Virus record (IMG/VR): IMGVR_UViG_3300017911_001987
Location: 1-32,296 of that record
Source: a virus
Taxonomy: Duplodnaviria > Caudoviricetes
Strand: one strand, 5' to 3'
Length of the DNA stretch: 32,296 nt
Shown here: positions 4,550-27,686 of the stretch, piece after piece
How positions within the stretch are numbered: position 1 is the stretch's first letter
Layout of the letters: the number at the start of each line of letters is the position of its first letter
Notes under the pieces: model-generated
Told to the model about the DNA's origin: nothing
What the model saw: only the letters and a program-made list of their open reading frames with translations
Databases searched by the model: none
Position numbers and translations under genes: made by a program

Positions 4550-4792
4550 ATGCGTAAGATTGCTAAAAGGTTCGAGGAAATCTGGGCCAAAGCAGAAGAA
4601 CGTAACGGTCAATACGGACATCGCTACCATAAGTGTTACGACCATAACAAACGTTATGTGACCATGGGCATCTATGACTCAGTAACAAAAAAGTATGTGA
4701 TTTTCGATACCATTAATCTTGCTGGCAATTTCAGGTATAATTCCAAAGGAATGCCTGCAGAGCTAGCAGAAATGGAAAAATTGATCGATTAA
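4550..4792 (+). CDS. Small hypothetical protein (80 aa), opposite strand to the baseplate genes
   Basis: ORF with SD-like GAAAGGT upstream and its own terminator downstream; fills the gap between gp25 and the gp5-like gene. Confidence 0.75.
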   Translation: MRKIAKRFEEIWAKAEERNGQYGHRYHKCYDHNKRYVTMGIYDSVTKKYVIFDTINLAGNFRYNSKGMPAELAEMEKLID

Positions 4793-13153: not shown

Positions 13154-14917
13154 ATGTTAAACATTAAAAATGTAAGTGCACGAAACTTTATGAGTATTGG
13201 TGCACAGACACAGGCTGTAAATTTTGACGGTAATCAGCTCACATTAGTGTTAGGACACAACCTGGATATGGGTGGTGATGGTAGCAGAAATGGTACTGGT
13301 AAAACCACTATCATTAATGCTCTCAGTTACGGCTTATACGGCGAGGCATTAACCAATATCAAACGTGACAATCTTATCAACAAAACAAATGGTAAGGGCA
13401 TGATGGTCACAGTGGAGTTTGAAATTGCTGGCGTACAATATCGCATAGAGCGTGGCAGACGACCTAATGTGTTGCGTTTACTTGTGGATGGTGTGGAGAG
13501 AGTGGATGACGATGCTCAAGGCGATAGTCGCGAAACACAAAAAGCAATCGAAAAGATTGTGGGTTTCCCACATGAAATGTTCAAACACATTGTTGCACTA
13601 AACACATATACTGAACCGTTTTTAAGTATGCGTAACAATGATCAACGTGCCATGATAGAGCAGTTGTTGGGTATAACTGATCTAAGTACCAAGGCTGACA
13701 TTCTTAAAGATCTGCTAAAAGACACCAGGGACAGAATTAAAGAAGAAGAAATACGTATCAATACTGTACAAGCAAGTAATGAGCGTATTGGAAAAAACAT
13801 CAAAGAGATTGAAAGTCGTAGCAAAGCCTGGACTGTGACATACAATGATAAACTGTCTGGCATGGAGCAAGCATTAACATCGCTAGCAGAGCTGGATGTG
13901 GATGCAGAAATTTCTGCACACAAACAGAATGCTGATGCTAAAGAACAACAAGAAATACTGAACACTATCAAGAAAGAGCTAACAAATGCTGAGACCAGTT
14001 TTGAACGCAGTAAAGAAAAACTGGATGGGTTGCACTCAGATTTAAAAAGTGCAAAAGAGGGTGTATGTCCTGCATGTGAACAACCTACTGCACATCTGGA
14101 CACACATGAACAATACACAAAAGATCTGGAAGACAAGATTGCAGAAGAAACTGTGTACAACAATCAGAAATCTGAAGAAATTTCAGAGCTGGGTGAGGCA
14201 GTTGAGTTTATTCAGGTACCTGATGTACAATCAACGTTTTATGAAAATATAGAACAGGCATATGAGCACAAACACAATTTGGAAAGTTTGGCTGAACAAA
14301 TTGTTGAGAAACAATCAGAAGAAAATCCATACATAGAACAAATACAAACTCTAAAAGAAACTGGGTTGGAAGAAATAAGTTGGGATTATATCAATGAACT
14401 AACTGAGCTCAGAGAGCATCAGGACTTTTTATATAAACTGCTCACAAACAAAGACAGTTTTATACGTAAACGCATCATTGATCAGAACATTGCATATCTA
14501 AATCACAGACTGAGTTACTATCTGGATAAAATTGGTTTGCCACATGAGGTTAAGTTTGCCAGTGATTTAAATGTGGAGATTACAGAATATGGCAGAGACT
14601 TAGACTTTGATAACTTGAGCAGAGGCGAACGTAACAGACTTATACTGAGTTTGAGTTGGGCGTTCAGAGACATTTACGAAAGTTTAAATCATCCAATGAA
14701 CTTGTTATGTGTGGACGAACTTATTGATTCAGGTATGGACAGCATGGGTGTTGAAAACAGTCTTGCTATACTCAAGAAAATGAACAGAGAACAAAAGAAA
14801 AATATTTTGTTGGTGTCGCACAAAGAAGAGTTAGTAGGACGTGTGAACAATGTGCTCACAGTGATCAAGGAAGGCGGATTTACCAGTTACAACACTGACA
14901 CAGACTTCGTTTCTTAA
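13154..14917 (+). CDS. gp46: Recombination ATPase, Rad50/SbcC-like
   Basis: Walker A NGTGKTT, coiled coil with CPAC zinc hook, signature LSRGE, Walker B LLCVDE, H-loop VSH. Confidence 0.95.
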   Translation: MLNIKNVSARNFMSIGAQTQAVNFDGNQLTLVLGHNLDMGGDGSRNGTGKTTIINALSYGLYGEALTNIKRDNLINKTNGKGMMVTVEFEIAGVQYRIERGRRPNVLRLLVDGVERVDDDAQGDSRETQKAIEKIVGFPHEMFKHIVALNTYTEPFLSMRNNDQRAMIEQLLGITDLSTKADILKDLLKDTRDRIKEEEIRINTVQASNERIGKNIKEIESRSKAWTVTYNDKLSGMEQALTSLAELDVDAEISAHKQNADAKEQQEILNTIKKELTNAETSFERSKEKLDGLHSDLKSAKEGVCPACEQPTAHLDTHEQYTKDLEDKIAEETVYNNQKSEEISELGEAVEFIQVPDVQSTFYENIEQAYEHKHNLESLAEQIVEKQSEENPYIEQIQTLKETGLEEISWDYINELTELREHQDFLYKLLTNKDSFIRKRIIDQNIAYLNHRLSYYLDKIGLPHEVKFASDLNVEITEYGRDLDFDNLSRGERNRLILSLSWAFRDIYESLNHPMNLLCVDELIDSGMDSMGVENSLAILKKMNREQKKNILLVSHKEELVGRVNNVLTVIKEGGFTSYNTDTDFVS

Positions 14918-14937: not shown

Positions 14938-14945
14938 CGTAAATA
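14938..14945 (+). promoter_or_regulatory. Late-promoter variant CGTAAATA
   Basis: TAAATA core 5 nt before the ATG at 14951, the same geometry as gp25; no SD sequence. Confidence 0.55.
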
Positions 14946-14950
14946 GAATT

Positions 14951-15376
14951 ATGAGTCCATGGCTACATCAGGGTACCGTAATAGATAACTTACCAGAAAA
15001 TTGCGAAGCATTCGTTTATCTGATCACGAACAAAATAAATGATAAAAAGTACGTGGGCAAAAAACTTGCAAGGTTTAAAACAACTAAACCTCCACTAAAA
15101 GGCAGAAAGAACAAACGTCGTGGTTACAAGGAAAGTGACTGGCGAGATTACTGGGGCAGTTCAGATCATCTAAAGGCAGATGTCGCTGAGCTGGGAGAAG
15201 AAAATTTTACCAGAGAAATATTACACTTTTGCCCTAGCAGAGGAGTTGCTAGTTATTTAGAAGCAAAAGAACAATTTGATAGGCAAGTATTGTTGACAGA
15301 CGAGTATTATAATGGTATAATAAACGTCAGAGTGGGCGGATCAGAAATTTTACGTGAAGCTCTCAACAAGGACTAA
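14951..15376 (+). CDS. Small stand-alone GIY-YIG nuclease-family protein (Seg/EndoII-like catalytic domain only)
   Basis: FVYLITNKINDKKYVGKK (GIY-YIG variant), YWGSS, FTREIL, LEAKEQ, YYN; 141 aa with no C-terminal DNA-binding domain. Confidence 0.85.
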   Translation: MSPWLHQGTVIDNLPENCEAFVYLITNKINDKKYVGKKLARFKTTKPPLKGRKNKRRGYKESDWRDYWGSSDHLKADVAELGEENFTREILHFCPSRGVASYLEAKEQFDRQVLLTDEYYNGIINVRVGGSEILREALNKD

Positions 15377-15444
15377 CTATAAATTGACCAACATGGCTCA
15401 CATGGCTTACACAGACACCCAGTCACACTCACAAGGCATATCAT

Positions 15445-15800
15445 AAACAGCACACAAGGTTGGCGGGCCGGATAGGATTACCGCTGTGGAAAAACTGGCG
15501 AAAACGTAACCAGACACGTACACATTGAGACACACCCACTGGTGTTAAGTATTAATGTAGATTGAATGCTGTCAATCAAAACACTGCAATGCACATAAAA
15601 ACTGTTTCTGTTGAAGCGAGAGAACAGGTAATACATTATGTATGATGTCGACGTAGGTTGGGAAAGGTCGGAGCCCATTGTGTAGCAGATAAACACCTAC
15701 CTTCAGTTGTGGTCGAAAACACTCGTCAGAAGAGCGTTAGCGATTTTTTTATATGAAGCCTAAATCAGGCTTCGTATGGCCTCAACATCTGTCAGAAGTA
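15445..15800 (+). ncRNA. Candidate large structured non-coding RNA (boundaries approximate)
   Basis: About 520-bp gap with no credible CDS in an otherwise dense genome; roughly ten nested helices found by eye, several with G-U pairs on the + strand. Confidence 0.6.
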
Positions 15801-15840: not shown

Positions 15841-15891
15841 TTCCAACAAATGAATGAACGAGCAAAGCGAAGTGAATGAATGCAGTTGGAA
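15841..15891 (+). other. Tandem G-A zipper hairpin closed by TTCCAAC/GTTGGAA
   Basis: TGAATGAACGAGC-AAA-GCGAAGTGAATGAA pairs as Watson-Crick steps alternating with three GA/GA tandem mismatches. Confidence 0.55.
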
Positions 15892-15897
15892 AGGCCT

Positions 15898-16614
15898 TTA
15901 GGCCTCGACATTTGACATATTAAGATAGTTATAAGTGGCATGCCAATCCGCCACAGGGTAAACACGACCACTACGATCAAGAACTTTCAGAGATAATGTA
16001 TAATCATTTCCGTTTTGATCACATCTATCTCCAAAAAAGTGTAAGTTATCATCAGTATCAAAATCAGTAATAATCTGAGCTTTATCACAGCCTGTAGGGA
16101 AAATGTCTAACCCAGTTTCTCCACCCACTTTGGCAATCACAGTGTCACCAAACATCTGGTTAAACTGTTCTGATATATGTTCACGTTCTTTGTTAATACA
16201 GTCCCAGGTGTAGTATTGTTTGCGTTGTTGTGAGTCAGCATTTCTGCCCACTACACTGAAGTTAACCATGCCGCACCTGTGTTCAAAATGCAAGCCTGTG
16301 CGTAATTCAAACTCACTGTCTGTGAGCTGTTGATTCAGCCAGGACTCCATGTGCTCTGGCAATGTCCAATCAGATCCTCTGATCAGTGTGTCTTGTTCCC
16401 ACACTTCATTACCACTACAGTTGTACACTCTGGCACACAAATCATATATCTGTTTGCCCACTTGTTCCAGCGTTTTTGGTCTGTCGCTGCCAGTGACCAG
16501 ATAAACATCGTTGTCAGTTGCAAACTGAATAAAAAATTTTTCAAATTCAGGATCTATAGTTTGACGGCTGGGAGTTAAGGTACCGTCTACATCAAATAAC
16601 CATTTGTGCGTCAT
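15898..16614 (-). CDS. pmm: Phosphomannomutase, eukaryote-type HAD-IIB family
   Basis: FDVDGTLT, TGSD, EHRCGMVNFSVVGRNA, GGETGLDIFP-GCDK and FFGDRCDQNGNDY match PMM2/Sec53-type motifs. Confidence 0.88.
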   Translation of the reverse strand: MTHKWLFDVDGTLTPSRQTIDPEFEKFFIQFATDNDVYLVTGSDRPKTLEQVGKQIYDLCARVYNCSGNEVWEQDTLIRGSDWTLPEHMESWLNQQLTDSEFELRTGLHFEHRCGMVNFSVVGRNADSQQRKQYYTWDCINKEREHISEQFNQMFGDTVIAKVGGETGLDIFPTGCDKAQIITDFDTDDNLHFFGDRCDQNGNDYTLSLKVLDRSGRVYPVADWHATYNYLNMSNVEA

Positions 16615-16844
16615 AATTCGTCCGATACAGGTTTTCCTGCTTTTAGTTTGTTGTAGTTGTTGATCACTTTCACAGCCATGGTTCTCTCTTTAGAACTCAT
16701 GAGCATCGCGTCCTGCCAACTGATGCTTCCTCCGCTGTACACTGCAATTTCGATCAGGCTTTTTTCCAGTGTCTCAGATTCTGTCCTGAGTTTGTTGATT
16801 AACTTAATAATCTCTTCAGGTTCTGCTTTTGCTAGGAAGCCGTG
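16611..16844 (-). CDS. gp51: gp51-like hub/tail assembly chaperone extension (77 aa), probably expressed by -1 frameshift from gp26
   Basis: Hand translation: HGFLAKAEPEEIIKLINKLRTESETLEKSLIEIAVYSGGSISWQDAMLMSSKERTMAVKVINNYNKLKAGKPVSDEL*. No start codon near its 5' end; its TGA overlaps the PMM ATG (ATGA). Confidence 0.75.
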   Translation of the reverse strand, partial: HGFLAKAEPEEIIKLINKLRTESETLEKSLIEIAVYSGGSISWQDAMLMSSKERTMAVKVINNYNKLKAGKPVSDEL

Positions 16845-17686
16845 AAAAAATTTACAGGGTCAAAACCAATCTCCTGTTCAAATGTTTCTGAACATTCTTC
16901 ACATTCCAACTGAATGGTTTTTATCACGCCAATTTTGTTCACTTCTGCAATACTGTTTTCTATGCTGTGCCCTATACTGCTCTCACAATTTTCCAAAAAT
17001 TCGCGAATTTGATCTCTGTTTGTTACCACAAACTCTTCGCCTTCTGGATCATTGCCACGTATACTGGCCACGCTGTCCACAATTAAATCAAAGTTAAGTG
17101 CCGCAATTTGCATAAAGTTACTGTTAAATGCTTTTAATTGCTCCATCTCATCTTCAATTTGTGCTAAACTCTGTAAACTGCGGGTGCTCTGGAAATTAGC
17201 AACTCCTGCCTTCACTGTGCTTTCGTATGTATACGGTCTGATCTCAATAACCAGTCCGTGATCAGTATTAAACTTATACGAATCTTTCAGTCTGGTCATG
17301 CTGTCCAGTGCACCTTCAATGCTGATAACACTGGTGATGGTCTCATCACATTTTGGACACTTGCCGTTGACTTCTACTTCGTCTCCACCAGTTGCACTCT
17401 GAATAGCAATCAGCAGTGTGTCTACATCGTTACTGATTAATAATCGAGGTTTTTTAACTGCTGGTACACAACTGGCAATCACTTGAGCAACTGCTTCACC
17501 GTTCAGCAATGCATCAGGATTCTTCATGATCATCTCATCTTTGGCAGTCATGGGGAAAATAGCGAGCTCGTTGGTTTCAGGCCACTCTATAACACCTTCG
17601 TCATAAAACTTGCCTCCGGTAGGTAAACCAGTGTACAACTTGGGTGCACGGTAAAAACCTGATAATGGATTTTGTGTGTTTGCCAT
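16832..17686 (-). CDS. gp26: Baseplate hub assembly chaperone, gp26-like
   Basis: LPTGGKFY, PMTAKDE, DVDTLLIAI, two CxxC motifs (CPKC, CEEC), C-terminal NFF; AGGAG SD. Confidence 0.8.
   Translation of the reverse strand: MANTQNPLSGFYRAPKLYTGLPTGGKFYDEGVIEWPETNELAIFPMTAKDEMIMKNPDALLNGEAVAQVIASCVPAVKKPRLLISNDVDTLLIAIQSATGGDEVEVNGKCPKCDETITSVISIEGALDSMTRLKDSYKFNTDHGLVIEIRPYTYESTVKAGVANFQSTRSLQSLAQIEDEMEQLKAFNSNFMQIAALNFDLIVDSVASIRGNDPEGEEFVVTNRDQIREFLENCESSIGHSIENSIAEVNKIGVIKTIQLECEECSETFEQEIGFDPVNFFTAS
16844..16853 (-). other. -1 ribosomal slippery site A AAU UUU UUC
   Basis: Two overlapping in-frame X XXY YYZ heptamers (A_AAU_UUU and U_UUU_UUC) in the Asn-Phe-Phe codons three codons before the gp26 stop. 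Confidence 0.72.
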
Positions 17687-20700: not shown

Positions 20701-21085
20701 TTTGGGCGATATTGCTGATCCAAACACTGCAGCACTGGATGCGTACACGTCATCGTTAAAATCTCTTACAGAGCTGGATGCAGACAGTCTGGTGTCCATT
20801 AGCCAAGCCATGGAAAGAATTAATCGCAACCTGATTGGATCAAATGCCAACACTGTGAGTGTAACAAATGATGTGCTAAACACAACTGATACCCAAGCAG
20901 TGGTGCCTCCTACGCCAGCGATACAGGAACTTGTGGGGCCACCAACACCTGAGTCAGCAGGCACCAGCTCAGTTATGCCGCCCGCCGTAGAGAAATCAGA
21001 TTCTGGACGTGATTTGTTGAGTGCTGTTAGAAGAACAAACCAAAAACTGGACACACTGATCTCTGCCACACAAAAAGCATCTTGA
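17783..21085 (+). CDS. Tape-measure-like tail protein (1100 aa)
   Basis: Long Ala/Gly-rich, probably helical protein with hydrophobic stretches and internal repeats; late promoter; adjacent to the gp26/gp51 chaperones. Confidence 0.7.
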   Translation: MANITLPDGTVIPEYALETTQASMEKLLTALVGSDEKAMKHYEALVKNAKQQTTDGKAANQTAEESLNALKEIQKDTKAGKSMLGSSLSVMGNVADGTSNLLIKLGVAASGAALSGISLLAKNAYNLGTSLADLGQVGIGLEGINDTTPSTIASLNRLGLTSTEAADQLFNSASTIAAIGQKQFVQVNAVLADMTNSGARFGLTMSGLANIAAEDLETRQKLGILDNLNASQAAQRSQELYQSQMDATKLLGKTINDIRLASRNTLQGNAEFALRVLDISSRLDAESARGFVQGMEMGLGALAGSGLGDSLIDQIGNEIGAAVAFASDGGQELFRTLNFINPALTESVRNMNQIAKSDSPQKIAGAMDKFNEQLLNTAADMGSEEFNALSAQLLAGNFGQFGRDLAISLGEIRIAAGNLGKDTAAEFSQLAQGAKTFDNAMAKFSGGITGMFNEMSGALGPAVGGLAGAFTDTMNELPAGATNLKTYMDESGKILRTYTDKSGNEITENITDQIGIATQFKFTMRDISQALAEAFGGAEGDFKNLGDMLRANVVPAIRNFGDWFQSGGFEKIKSAFSFVGGVLSGFGEAIKFVADIVTTTLMPMFGSGDGDKLSIDFAELGKTIGLSIAGFIALTKTVKLLNAGMGVAKTVGGLFKGGAGAASSAASSVGGAAGGAAAKTGAGIAKLGRGIGSGVGAIFSGLGKGLAAVPVAALKGAGIIAGAITILAGGVKAAAFILNMGGEDGLKQLSSGFASFNDIDGRNLVSVGAGLTALGLGLAAFGAGSVVGALGNLTAGLMDSMNKFFGGSTIFEKVEEFAKYNFPVDRIKNNAEAIVAYAKAMASAGGGTVASSMGNFIASITDGLVKLFGGDTPLEKVQKFGDMQINSEGILQNADALRTYGIAMSELSDIDYPGNTIGSFLSDIGSGLLSLLGGDSPLEKLQDFGDMNINAQGINTNATAIATYANAMQSLSSLGDIADPNTAALDAYTSSLKSLTELDADSLVSISQAMERINRNLIGSNANTVSVTNDVLNTTDTQAVVPPTPAIQELVGPPTPESAGTSSVMPPAVEKSDSGRDLLSAVRRTNQKLDTLISATQKAS
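20130..20700 (+). repeat. Three ~63-64 aa repeats in the tape-measure-like protein
   Basis: GGSTIFEKVEEF (20198), GGDTPLEKVQKFGDM (20387) and GGDSPLEKLQDFGDM (20579), each followed by I..NA.A...Y..AM. Confidence 0.8.
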
Positions 21086-21762
21086 TGTCAAACTTACTGA
21101 TATATCAATATTTTCGTGACCCAGTGCTGGATGATCAGCCTCATGAAAAACCTTGGCGCCAAATCATGGGCACTGGTTACCACAAACTCAGCAAGCAATC
21201 CATCAGCAAGTATGCAGAAAAATGCAATGTGGAATACAAATTTCTGGACCACTATATAGGATACTCCACATTTTACGGCATATTCCTGCCTTTTTTAGAA
21301 TACTGGGCACACGATTATGATGCTGTTTGTTTTGTGGACAGTGATGTACTAGCCACTGTGAATTTTGAAAACGTATTCACACACATGCAACCTGACTGTG
21401 TAAACATATCCTTAACTGGCACCAAGAGCAATAACGAATGGTTAGATCAACAGGGCGGTATTGCTAATTCAGGAGTTGTGATATTTCCAAAAAACATATA
21501 TGGCGACATCACAGACTTTGTGCTGAACAACATCAATAAAAACTCTGGCCGTGGCAAATGGGGTAATTGGGATCAGCTGATAATTAACCGGTTTCTGGTA
21601 CACTCAAAAAAAGTAAACAATTTGCCTAAACAATTCAACTGGCATATGGGCAAGTATTCAAACGACAAAAACAGCAGATGCTCACAGACTCTGATACATT
21701 ATCATGGAAAATTCAAAGTATTAATAGAAACTGAATTTCATGATGAATGCATACTGAAATAG
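21085..21762 (+). CDS. GT-A fold glycosyltransferase (GT8/GT34-like)
   Basis: FVDSD (DxD), ANSGV, WDQ, FNW, IHYHG motifs; the ATG overlaps the upstream TGA. Confidence 0.8.
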   Translation: MSNLLIYQYFRDPVLDDQPHEKPWRQIMGTGYHKLSKQSISKYAEKCNVEYKFLDHYIGYSTFYGIFLPFLEYWAHDYDAVCFVDSDVLATVNFENVFTHMQPDCVNISLTGTKSNNEWLDQQGGIANSGVVIFPKNIYGDITDFVLNNINKNSGRGKWGNWDQLIINRFLVHSKKVNNLPKQFNWHMGKYSNDKNSRCSQTLIHYHGKFKVLIETEFHDECILK

Positions 21763-26487: not shown

Positions 26488-27639
26488 ATGGCAAACTTAT
26501 TTGAAAGCAACTGGTCAGCAACCAAAGATGCGTTGATGGAAGGCCTAACAGGTCAACGTCAAAAAACTATGGATGTTGTCCTTGAGAATGCGAAAAAGCA
26601 ATTGTCAGAGGCAGCAAGCACAGGCGCAACAGGTGCTGGTTCAGTAGCGACATTAAACAAGGTTATGTTACCATTAATTAGAAGGGTTATGCCTTCAGTT
26701 ATTGCTAACGAACTAGTAGGCGTTCAGCCTATGACTGGTCCAGTAGGACAAATTCACACATTGCGTGTACGTTATGCAGAAACAGCTGCTGGCGTAAATG
26801 CAGGTACAGAAGCTCTATCACCATTTGCATTAGCAAATGCATATTCAGGTTCACCAGACGCTACAGCAAGTGCTGAAGGTACACCAGGACGTAAGATGAG
26901 CATTCAAATCTTGAAAGAAACAGTAGAAGCAAAGACAAGACGTCTATCAGCTCGCTGGACTTTCGAAGCAGCACAAGACGCAGAAGCAATGCATGGTGTT
27001 GACGTTGAGTCAGAAATCATGGCTGCTTTAGCACAGGAAATCGTAGTTGAAATCGACCAAGAAATTATCGGTTCACTACGCTCACTAGCAGGCGCAGGTA
27101 CAACTTTAGACTTCGGTTCATTAAGTGGTCAAAGCGTATACGTTGGTGACCGTCATGCTGCATTAGCAATTGAGATCAACAGAGCAGCTAACAGAATCGC
27201 AGCTAGAACAAGACGCGGTGCTGGTAACTACGTTGTTGTTTCTCCAGAAGCACTAACAATCCTTCAGTCAGCAAGCACATCAACATTTGCTCGCACAACA
27301 GAAGGTTCATTTGAAGCACCTACAAACACTAAGTTTGTTGGTACATTAAATGGTACTGTTAAAGTATTCGTGGACAACTACGCAGCTGATCAAGCTGACG
27401 GCGGTCCAGTAGTACTAGTAGGTTACAAAGGTTCATCAGAAACTGATGCTCCAGCGTTCTACTGCCCATACGTTCCTCTAATGAGCACAGGTCCAGTAAT
27501 GGATCCTGCAACATTTGAGCCAGTAGTGAGCTTTATGACACGTTATGGTTATAAAGAGCTTACAAACACTGCAAGTTCATTAGGTAACGCAGGTGACTAC
27601 GTTGATGCTATCACATTAGCAAACGTATCATTCCAGTAA
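26488..27639 (+). CDS. gp23: Major capsid protein
   Basis: PLIRRVMPSVIANELVGVQPMTGPVGQI, VEAKTRRLSARWTFEAAQD, AFYCPYVPL, FMTRYG. Confidence 0.97.
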   Translation: MANLFESNWSATKDALMEGLTGQRQKTMDVVLENAKKQLSEAASTGATGAGSVATLNKVMLPLIRRVMPSVIANELVGVQPMTGPVGQIHTLRVRYAETAAGVNAGTEALSPFALANAYSGSPDATASAEGTPGRKMSIQILKETVEAKTRRLSARWTFEAAQDAEAMHGVDVESEIMAALAQEIVVEIDQEIIGSLRSLAGAGTTLDFGSLSGQSVYVGDRHAALAIEINRAANRIAARTRRGAGNYVVVSPEALTILQSASTSTFARTTEGSFEAPTNTKFVGTLNGTVKVFVDNYAADQADGGPVVLVGYKGSSETDAPAFYCPYVPLMSTGPVMDPATFEPVVSFMTRYGYKELTNTASSLGNAGDYVDAITLANVSFQ

Positions 27640-27659
27640 GATTTAGTTTACTGAAAGTT

Positions 27660-27686
27660 AAAGCCCACTTAGGTGGGCTTTTTCTT
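27660..27686 (+). terminator. Rho-independent terminator after the capsid gene
   Basis: AAAGCCCAC-TTAG-GTGGGCTTT followed by TTCTT. Confidence 0.9.

Follow-up and report, generated by a model that had tools for sequence, protein, structure and literature searches.

What occupies the longest gap among the apparent genes of a jumbo phage contig (15377–15897), directly downstream of a gene for a small GIY-YIG nuclease? The contig (IMG/VR record IMGVR_UViG_3300017911_001987) was analyzed over its full length of 32,296 nt, hereafter the window. An earlier note, made from the letters of the window alone, had singled out this gap, had drawn a densely folded + strand RNA in it, and had suggested that RNA and protein form an RNA-scaffolded or RNA-guided nuclease or that the RNA is an independent ribozyme or primer.

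The window covers the stretch from gp47–gp46 to the capsid genes in a jumbo phage whose relatives include PA5oct, GAP32, and RaK2, an affiliation marked by its major capsid protein (68.5% to PA5oct) and by a late sigma factor as a second marker. The assembly behind it is a single 32-kb contig. Features of the locus are listed in Table 1. A phosphomannomutase/HAD-family gene (PF03332, E = 5e-23; 15898–16614, − strand) separates the element from the hub gene, in a slot that holds varied genes in relatives.

Table 1. Features of the locus, in window coordinates.
Feature	Position	Strand	Remarks
gp46/SbcC	13154–14917	+	Left marker of the locus
SegE-family GIY-YIG nuclease, 141 aa	14951–15376	+	Likely Holliday-junction/branch resolvase, judged by gene slot; not part of the RNA
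Sigma70-type promoter match, TTGACA-17-TATAAT, perfect	15293–15321	+	Inside the 3' end of the gene; candidate RNA start near 15328
A/C-rich linker	15377–15458	+	57/82 nt A or C; similar linkers in relatives
5' RNA domain	15459–15590	+	Hairpins 15461–86 and 15486–15517; covarying stem 15523–27/15553–57
Pseudoknot 5' strand	15591–15595	+	Pairs with 15679–15683; five covarying pairs
Two covarying hairpins	15602–15643	+	15602–27 and 15631–43
Most conserved core	15644–15705	+	Stem 15653–58/15695–700 around hairpin 15659–77 and pseudoknot 3' strand 15679–83
3' domain	15706–15786	+	Closing helix 15706–15/15777–86 around R1 and hairpin 15751–77
Direct repeat R1 (GTCAGAAG)	15725–15732	+	Predicted pairing partner: R2 on the DNA template strand
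Direct repeat R2 (GTCAGAAG)	15791–15798	+	Likely RNA 3' end and priming site
Hairpin with three tandem G·A pairs alternating with two Watson–Crick pairs	15841–15891	+	Not captured by the energy model
C(TTTA)G hairpin	15892–15905		"Far" hairpin of the family; may also terminate the convergent gene
Baseplate hub	16832–17686	−	Right marker of the locus

Folding and conservation of the RNA

Compared with shuffled sequences, the folding energy of the gap was at chance level on both strands (z of −0.45 for the + strand and −1.21 for the − strand), so the case for an RNA rests on comparison with relatives. Helices were scored by the percentage of sequences paired in an alignment of 101 type-A sequences (element types are lettered A to G). 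A tree-based co-change test on the same sequences ranked Watson–Crick pairs at the top. The hairpins CUGUU/AACAG and AUACA/UGUAU were each paired in 92% of sequences with two-sided covariation, CUGG/CCAG (15486–15517) was paired in 77% with covariation, and GUAGGU/ACCUAC and UGGG/CCCA were paired in 100% and 99%, respectively, and were nearly invariant, all as originally drawn. Within the long 3' stem (15751–77), the hairpin at 15755–73 was paired in 100%; the A/C-rich linker noticed after the gene stood, and UGGCGG/CCGCUG (15461–86) looked conserved in relatives by eye. Other helices fared less well. CAUUG/CAAUG (15523–27/15587–91) was paired in only 62% of sequences, and 15523–27 pairs instead with 15553–57 (91%). 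ACACC/GGUGU and GAUUGA/UCAAUC were paired in 51% and 21%, which is poor for the type-A alignment and may reflect misalignment. The pairing GGUCG/UGGCC is ambiguous, since it was found in 79% of sequences as drawn and the alternative 15666–70/15777–81 in 100%. Comparison also revealed a pseudoknot (15591–95/15679–83) paired in 96%, with two to three Watson–Crick types per pair; the first description likewise contained neither the pair of direct repeats nor the hairpins beyond them (15841–15905). In seven supported helices, G–U combinations outnumbered A–C combinations by 325 to 17, which favors the + strand as the folded one, in agreement with what had been read from the G–U pairs of the single sequence.

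ARAGORN found no tRNA or tmRNA in the window, and the Rfam scan that had been called for returned no match there, hence no assignment to tRNA, tmRNA, RNase P, or group I/II introns. Readings as box C/D, K-turn, RNase P, or group I structures were dropped by eye (no Rfam match, no suitable stems).

The element was present at 65 of 81 loci of close GIY-YIG relatives; 50 were found downstream of the gene by iterative nhmmer, two further ones were added, and five of type F and eight of type G were recognized by eye. It was not nearby at 13 loci, which were checked within about 3 kb of the gene, and the remaining three were too short. A 23-nt core pattern recovered at least 120 viral loci. Among the core-pattern loci listed, 80 had flanks; wherever the upstream flank reached 450 nt (76 loci), the nuclease gene lay 127–543 nt before the core. 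Of 39 loci recovered by a type-B pattern, 35 had a GIY-YIG gene, one was too short, and three, from one lineage, had a GMP-reductase-like gene instead. With its covarying helices, a 5-bp pseudoknot, and recurrence at 65/81 loci, the + strand RNA is, on comparative grounds, real, folded, and conserved in many marine jumbo phages. The eight type G elements lie upstream of the GIY-YIG gene on the same strand, each with its own TTGACA promoter (8/8; L019, L026, L028, L034, L035, L062, L070, and L079), an order in which the 3' hairpins abut the start codon.

Sequencing runs were searched with a homologous locus, L135, as the query, and the resulting contigs show neither ends, strand, nor level. L135 was found in 13 runs recorded as RNA. 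In all four RNA runs examined, contigs covered both gene and element, which as contigs cannot prove transcription, strand, or ends; one RNA-library contig (X8, 816–1429) spans gene and element and is no proof of a single transcript. Metatranscriptome contigs from three studies end at or before position 1600 of L135, short of the 3' hairpins.

The sigma70-type promoter match inside the nuclease gene was considered as a selected feature and rejected. Such promoters occurred at 14/114 loci with the RNA and at 2/10 loci without it, so the lack of enrichment suggests that the match may be a codon by-product.

Direct repeats and 3' hairpins

R1 and R2 lie 54–68 nt apart and were identical at positions 1–6 in all 92 distinct elements. 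All 25 variant letters of the repeat occur in both copies, and changes on tree branches were shared by R1 and R2 in 4/4, 4/4, 3/3, and 2/2 cases. The same identity was seen in type B (26/29, the other three being wrong picks) and in types D, E, F, and G, as well as in enterobacterial copies. An 8-mer repeat at such spacing appeared in 93 of 300 shuffles. The tree-based test of the 101 type-A sequences detected no third, complementary strand co-varying with the repeats. A segment that must equal its twin yet varies freely is most simply explained if the RNA copy of one repeat pairs with the DNA complement of the other. Mismatches between R1 and R2 comprised 19 forward wobbles (RNA R1 on template R2) vs. 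one reverse, in related patterns and mostly at one position.

In DRT2 systems, a reverse transcriptase jumps between repeats of a template RNA, and the element could in principle be such a template, since matched direct repeats flank a segment of 50–85 nt. We consider this reading barely credible, however, as RVT_1 was detected in none of five records searched, two of them incomplete contigs (the control was positive in 3/14 genomes), and the direction of the wobbles disfavors annealing of an R1 cDNA to R2.

A census of loops was carried out over 157 related elements. Upstream of R2 there were 39 GNRA loops, and GNA loops made up 9/335. Minus-strand GNA loops predominated just after R2 (66 vs. 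3) and plus-strand GNA loops further on (102 vs. 3). In each of two marine contigs, the resulting mirror pair of GNA hairpins has a single occurrence, which is at the element. No near C(TTC)G hairpin is seen in the window, and GAP32 is without the mirror pair. Loops of the GNA-triloop and G·A-zipper type are especially stable in DNA, and the G·A-zipper hairpin at 15841–15891 is one that we take to be a DNA-type structure. A descriptor combining repeats and hairpins was abandoned as unspecific, since it also responded to other gaps and failed to pick up some true copies.

Element types and copies in cultured phages

With the window element as query, types A and C match directly (E = 1e-67 and 2e-19, respectively). 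By profiles, types B, D, and E are connected (E = 1e-8 to 1e-18), type F is tied to E (1e-8), and type D is tied to C (6e-5). The type-A profile had no match to the other types, and the enterobacterial profile had none to the marine types. Marine and enterobacterial elements found no mutual match by nhmmer or by covariance model. A covariance model of types B, D, E, and F placed its four best matches at the homologous position in C, A, G, and A loci, at only E = 0.2–2.4, and had no match at the window element or at the enterobacterial copies. Searches of cultured phages by blastn with the window element and with a type D element returned nothing meaningful.

One Rfam family does coincide with part of the element. 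RF01718 (Polynucleobacter-1) covers the 5' 141 nt of type D at all three loci (63–108 bits, cut-off 37), a position that corresponds to the 5' domain 15459–15590 of the window; it omits the core, the pseudoknot, the repeats, and the hairpins. It did not match the window at E ≤ 10 or any of 18 loci of other types. In the available text of its description, this motif is a probable cis-regulatory one with 16 representatives (Weinberg 2010, PMC2864571).

In cultured relatives, the corresponding gaps share one order, namely a promoter, about 500 nt, a repeat, a strong hairpin, a second repeat, and zipper hairpins. As no sequence-level match to the marine types exists, homology with the cultured elements rests on synteny and anatomy, by which we judge the two groups probably homologous. 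The evidence from multiple copies and from ncRNA004 that follows applies to the marine elements only if that homology holds.

The GAP32 element was found at 278 places in 71 records. GAP32 itself has five copies, at 35, 99, 177, 261, and 341 kb, all on one strand; BF, Munch, EJP2, and Kae01 have five each and PBECO4 has four. These copies are co-oriented and evenly spaced (P for the minimum gap 0.003–0.047 in five related genomes). PA5oct has three copies, at 12.9, 76.0, and 246.1 kb (spacing P 0.19), Phosso and two marine contigs have a single copy, and Vibrio phage 2.275.O has no element. In all five GAP32 copies, 491–550 nt separate an extended −10 motif from R2. In one of them both repeats have changed together, giving two repeat variants within one genome, which fits pairing in cis better than the site of one protein.

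PA5oct offers a transcript. Its ncRNA004 was defined by RNA-seq as a 619-nt RNA with a promoter, low in abundance and peaking early (0.08, 0.03, and 0.02% of phage reads), and the available text of that study gives no structure, family, or function for it (Lood 2020, PMC7318152). We found ncRNA004 to be a paralog of the syntenic element of PA5oct (82.5% over 126 nt). Like the marine elements, it combines a promoter and a strong hairpin with a repeat pair, here CATAAG, and a zipper hairpin; at the sequence level it has no match to the marine types. Its annotated last base is the last base of R2. The syntenic copy of PA5oct has no clear repeat pair.

These copies bear on another reading, that of an RNA with a catalytic or structural role of its own; R1 and R2 would then be twin sites for processing, ligation, or protein binding, and the 3' hairpins would be terminators. 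The elaborate pseudoknotted fold with its near-invariant core favors such a reading, as does the presence of the element in RNA-library contigs (4/4 runs examined for the homolog L135), and the end at R2 could be a cut site. A diffusible RNA, however, needs no evenly spaced, co-oriented copies, and the copies within a genome can carry different repeats, ncRNA004 is scarce, the 3' loops are GNA triloops on both strands, and no guide strand complementary to the repeat was found. On balance, we regard this explanation as rather unlikely.

Several observations were made around these cultured copies. In Vibrio phage 2.275.O, a helicase-like ResIII/DEAD gene stands at the element's place (L258, 5499–7199), perhaps as an alternative route of initiation, and in Sinorhizobium phage Phosso an RNase HI gene directly follows the element (L259, 9274–9660). 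A very AT-rich stretch after ncRNA004 (L272, 6840–7200; about 246.8–247.2 kb of PA5oct), where genes diverge from minus to plus, resembles an unwinding element. Four tiny annotated ORFs of PA5oct overlap its syntenic element (L256, 5705–6517) and may be spurious.

The GIY-YIG nuclease and its linkage to the RNA

The 141-aa product had been called a GIY-YIG protein from its sequence, and this call proved sound by family model and fold (Pfam SegE_GIY-YIG, PF19835, E = 2e-32), which place it in the GIY-YIG superfamily. A structure model (pLDDT 91) had the catalytic domain of I-TevI as its best structural match (Z 8.3, rmsd 2.7, 82 aligned) and located the previously noted basic insert on a β-hairpin at residues 41–61. 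Residues Y23, Y34, G36, E104, and N121 were invariant across 47 sequences. A sequence search of the PDB gave no relative of the nuclease, and Foldseek with the model gave no match under E = 0.001. The SegE-like family is very large, with 7998 of 8000 candidates scored. Its PHROG (447) is called "NAD synthetase" in PHROGs and in many GenBank records, apparently a propagated misannotation. A TAAATA motif resembling a late promoter lies 5 nt upstream of the start codon (14940–14945, + strand); its use would produce a nearly leaderless mRNA.

An RNA-scaffolded or RNA-guided nuclease draws its appeal from the tight adjacency of RNA and gene (76/76 type-A and 35/38 type-B loci), which is kept through inversion and order swap; from the basic β-hairpin insert; and from contig X8, with the limit given above. 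Linkage in this sense stood, and linkage in the sense of co-evolution did not. On the GIY-YIG tree, the RNA subtypes alternate across well-supported nodes, scattered over the tree rather than following it. Nested within it is a clade (support 96/88) of RNA-less GIY-YIGs, 71–77% identical and with the same basic insert, which come from the setting of small phages such as Melnitz. In one marine lineage the RNA sits beside the GMP-reductase-like gene without a GIY-YIG gene, elements of similar architecture in cultured relatives sit beside unrelated nucleases or none, and SegE_GIY-YIG profiles found nothing in PA5oct, GAP32, or Phosso. The variable guide-like segment that the earlier note had advised looking for was not found within the 32-kb window, where the element matches sequence elsewhere over 12 nt at most, short of guide length. 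IscB/IsrB–ωRNA (HEARO) systems also place a small nuclease gene beside a large structured RNA, but the present locus differs from them in having no Rfam match, no variable guide, no protein–RNA co-evolution, and an interchangeable nuclease family. The RNA is thus likely neither guide nor scaffold of the nuclease, and a joint ribonucleoprotein of the two seems highly improbable. Additional ORFs (225 aa; 318 aa) lie between nuclease and element at L010, L368 (554–1510), and L371 (554–1510).

What the nuclease does is suggested by its gene slot. In the gp46–hub interval of cultured relatives there is a different small nuclease, transcribed away from the long gap; it is a PDDEXK_15 nuclease in PA5oct and Phosso and an annotated EndoVII in GAP32, BF, and PBECO4, the GAP32 protein itself being without a Pfam model match. 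PDDEXK_15 was not detected in G002, G003, or Melnitz, and an EndoVII profile had no match anywhere, control included, so that its silence carries no information. In its available text, a survey describes EndoVII-like resolvases in this subgroup and several phages without a recognized resolvase (Iyer 2021, PMC7824862). Because the slot holds EndoVII or PDDEXK_15 in cultured relatives, and SegE is absent from the three genomes named above, the GIY-YIG protein is likely the junction resolvase of the marine lineages, a neighbor of the RNA and not its subunit. If so, SegE-like GIY-YIG proteins, common in marine T4-like phages, would be a junction resolvase that has gone unrecognized, and a widespread phage protein mislabeled as NAD synthetase would gain a candidate function.

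The syntenic copy has gp46 as a neighbor, together with a small nuclease that belongs to one of three unrelated families. This could also mean that the element acts in cis as DNA without being an origin, for instance as a hot spot for recombination, branch resolution, or packaging, opened by transcription and cut by the phage's own resolvase. The DNA-type hairpins agree with this. The G–U-rich covarying helices and the promoters, however, indicate a working RNA, and four of the five GAP32 copies have no evident adjacent nuclease gene in ORF lists, and we consider such a site improbable.

A proposed primer RNA at a replication origin

Of the two alternatives to a nuclease complex that had been offered, the ribozyme is the lower-rated rival discussed above, and the primer is the reading we favor. 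We give a probability of about 0.5 to the element being a primer RNA at a replication origin that works like ColE1 RNA II. An RNA of about 470–550 nt would fold during its own synthesis, seize the DNA it is transcribed from, and provide a 3' terminus at which DNA synthesis could start. An early host-type promoter would drive it (the transcript is known for ncRNA004 of PA5oct, and elsewhere there is the motif), and the RNA would take up the pseudoknotted structure seen by covariation. The closing helix would hold R1 next to R2, and R1 of the RNA would pair with the template at R2, nucleating a persistent R-loop; an R-loop at this place is suggested by the covariation in identity, the lack of a third complementary strand, and the direction of the wobbles. 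The RNA would then end or be cut at R2, as the one annotated end suggests, and prime. The opened DNA may expose the mirror-image GNA-loop and G·A-zipper hairpins, which could load helicase or primase. The RNase HI gene next to the element in Phosso speaks for this primer model. Several points speak against it, among them the single copies in Phosso and two marine contigs, the lack of an element in Vibrio phage 2.275.O, the syntenic PA5oct copy without a clear repeat pair, the nonsignificant spacing in PA5oct, and the hairpins missing from the window and from GAP32. In addition, the fold exceeds in complexity what priming would obviously require, and the tight GIY-YIG adjacency through rearrangements is left unexplained.

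ColE1 RNA II has its promoter about 500 nt upstream and hairpins downstream. According to the available text of a review, it is likewise a folded RNA with an upstream segment that pairs with template DNA near the origin, a stretch of rG on dC; it is processed by RNase H, and the displaced strand exposes loading sites (PMC4412123). The phage element differs in belonging to a phage and not a plasmid, in its mixed-sequence, variable repeat of 6–8 nt in place of G/C runs, in its pseudoknotted fold, and in its several copies per genome in some lineages; no antisense RNA I was seen. There is no sequence similarity, Rfam giving no RNA I/RNA II match in the window, and the likeness is one of working only. 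We know of no use of a conserved folded RNA or of matched repeats at T4 origins. The T4 R-loop origins oriF and oriG are similar in other ways, with a promoter and a downstream unwinding element, several origins per genome, and a T4-related phage as the setting, as far as the available text describes them (PMC4412123).

GC-skew minima lay within 1–5 kb of the element in three of four genomes and track gene orientation, and four-fold sites showed no clear skew switch. Skew was therefore rejected as proof of an origin, being confounded by gene orientation.

A wider proposal, to which we give somewhat less than even odds, is that the origins of GAP32/PA5oct-like jumbo phages are set by primer RNAs of a new class, pseudoknotted and self-targeting, with a freely variable segment of 6–8 nt determining the priming site, larger cultured genomes spacing four to five origins evenly, and the SegE-like GIY-YIG serving as an unrecognized resolvase. 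If true, such genomes would resemble a multi-origin chromosome, and a primer RNA whose DNA-pairing segment changes freely would be a natural programmable device for R-loop formation and priming. The architecture also ties together two orphans, a motif in Rfam and an ncRNA from RNA-seq. Some of these phages can be grown on laboratory E. coli and P. aeruginosa, and the element offers precise positions to mutate in them, so the question of an origin is directly testable. In the literature searched, which leaves out most subscription journals, neither the element as a whole nor replication origins of this jumbo clade were found described, and the available text of PMC13070987, PMC11895373, and an expression-atlas preprint does not mention the element.

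Other features of the window

Two ORFs elsewhere in the window stood out. One of 226 aa (21082–21762, + strand), with a DxD-like motif and no Pfam or PHROG match, lies between a tape-measure-like gene and the portal gene, and one of 80 aa (4550–4792, + strand), without a family match, runs on the strand opposite to the surrounding tail genes. A terminator-like hairpin follows the major capsid gene (27615–27683, + strand) and has a weak, sub-threshold match to isrB in Rfam.
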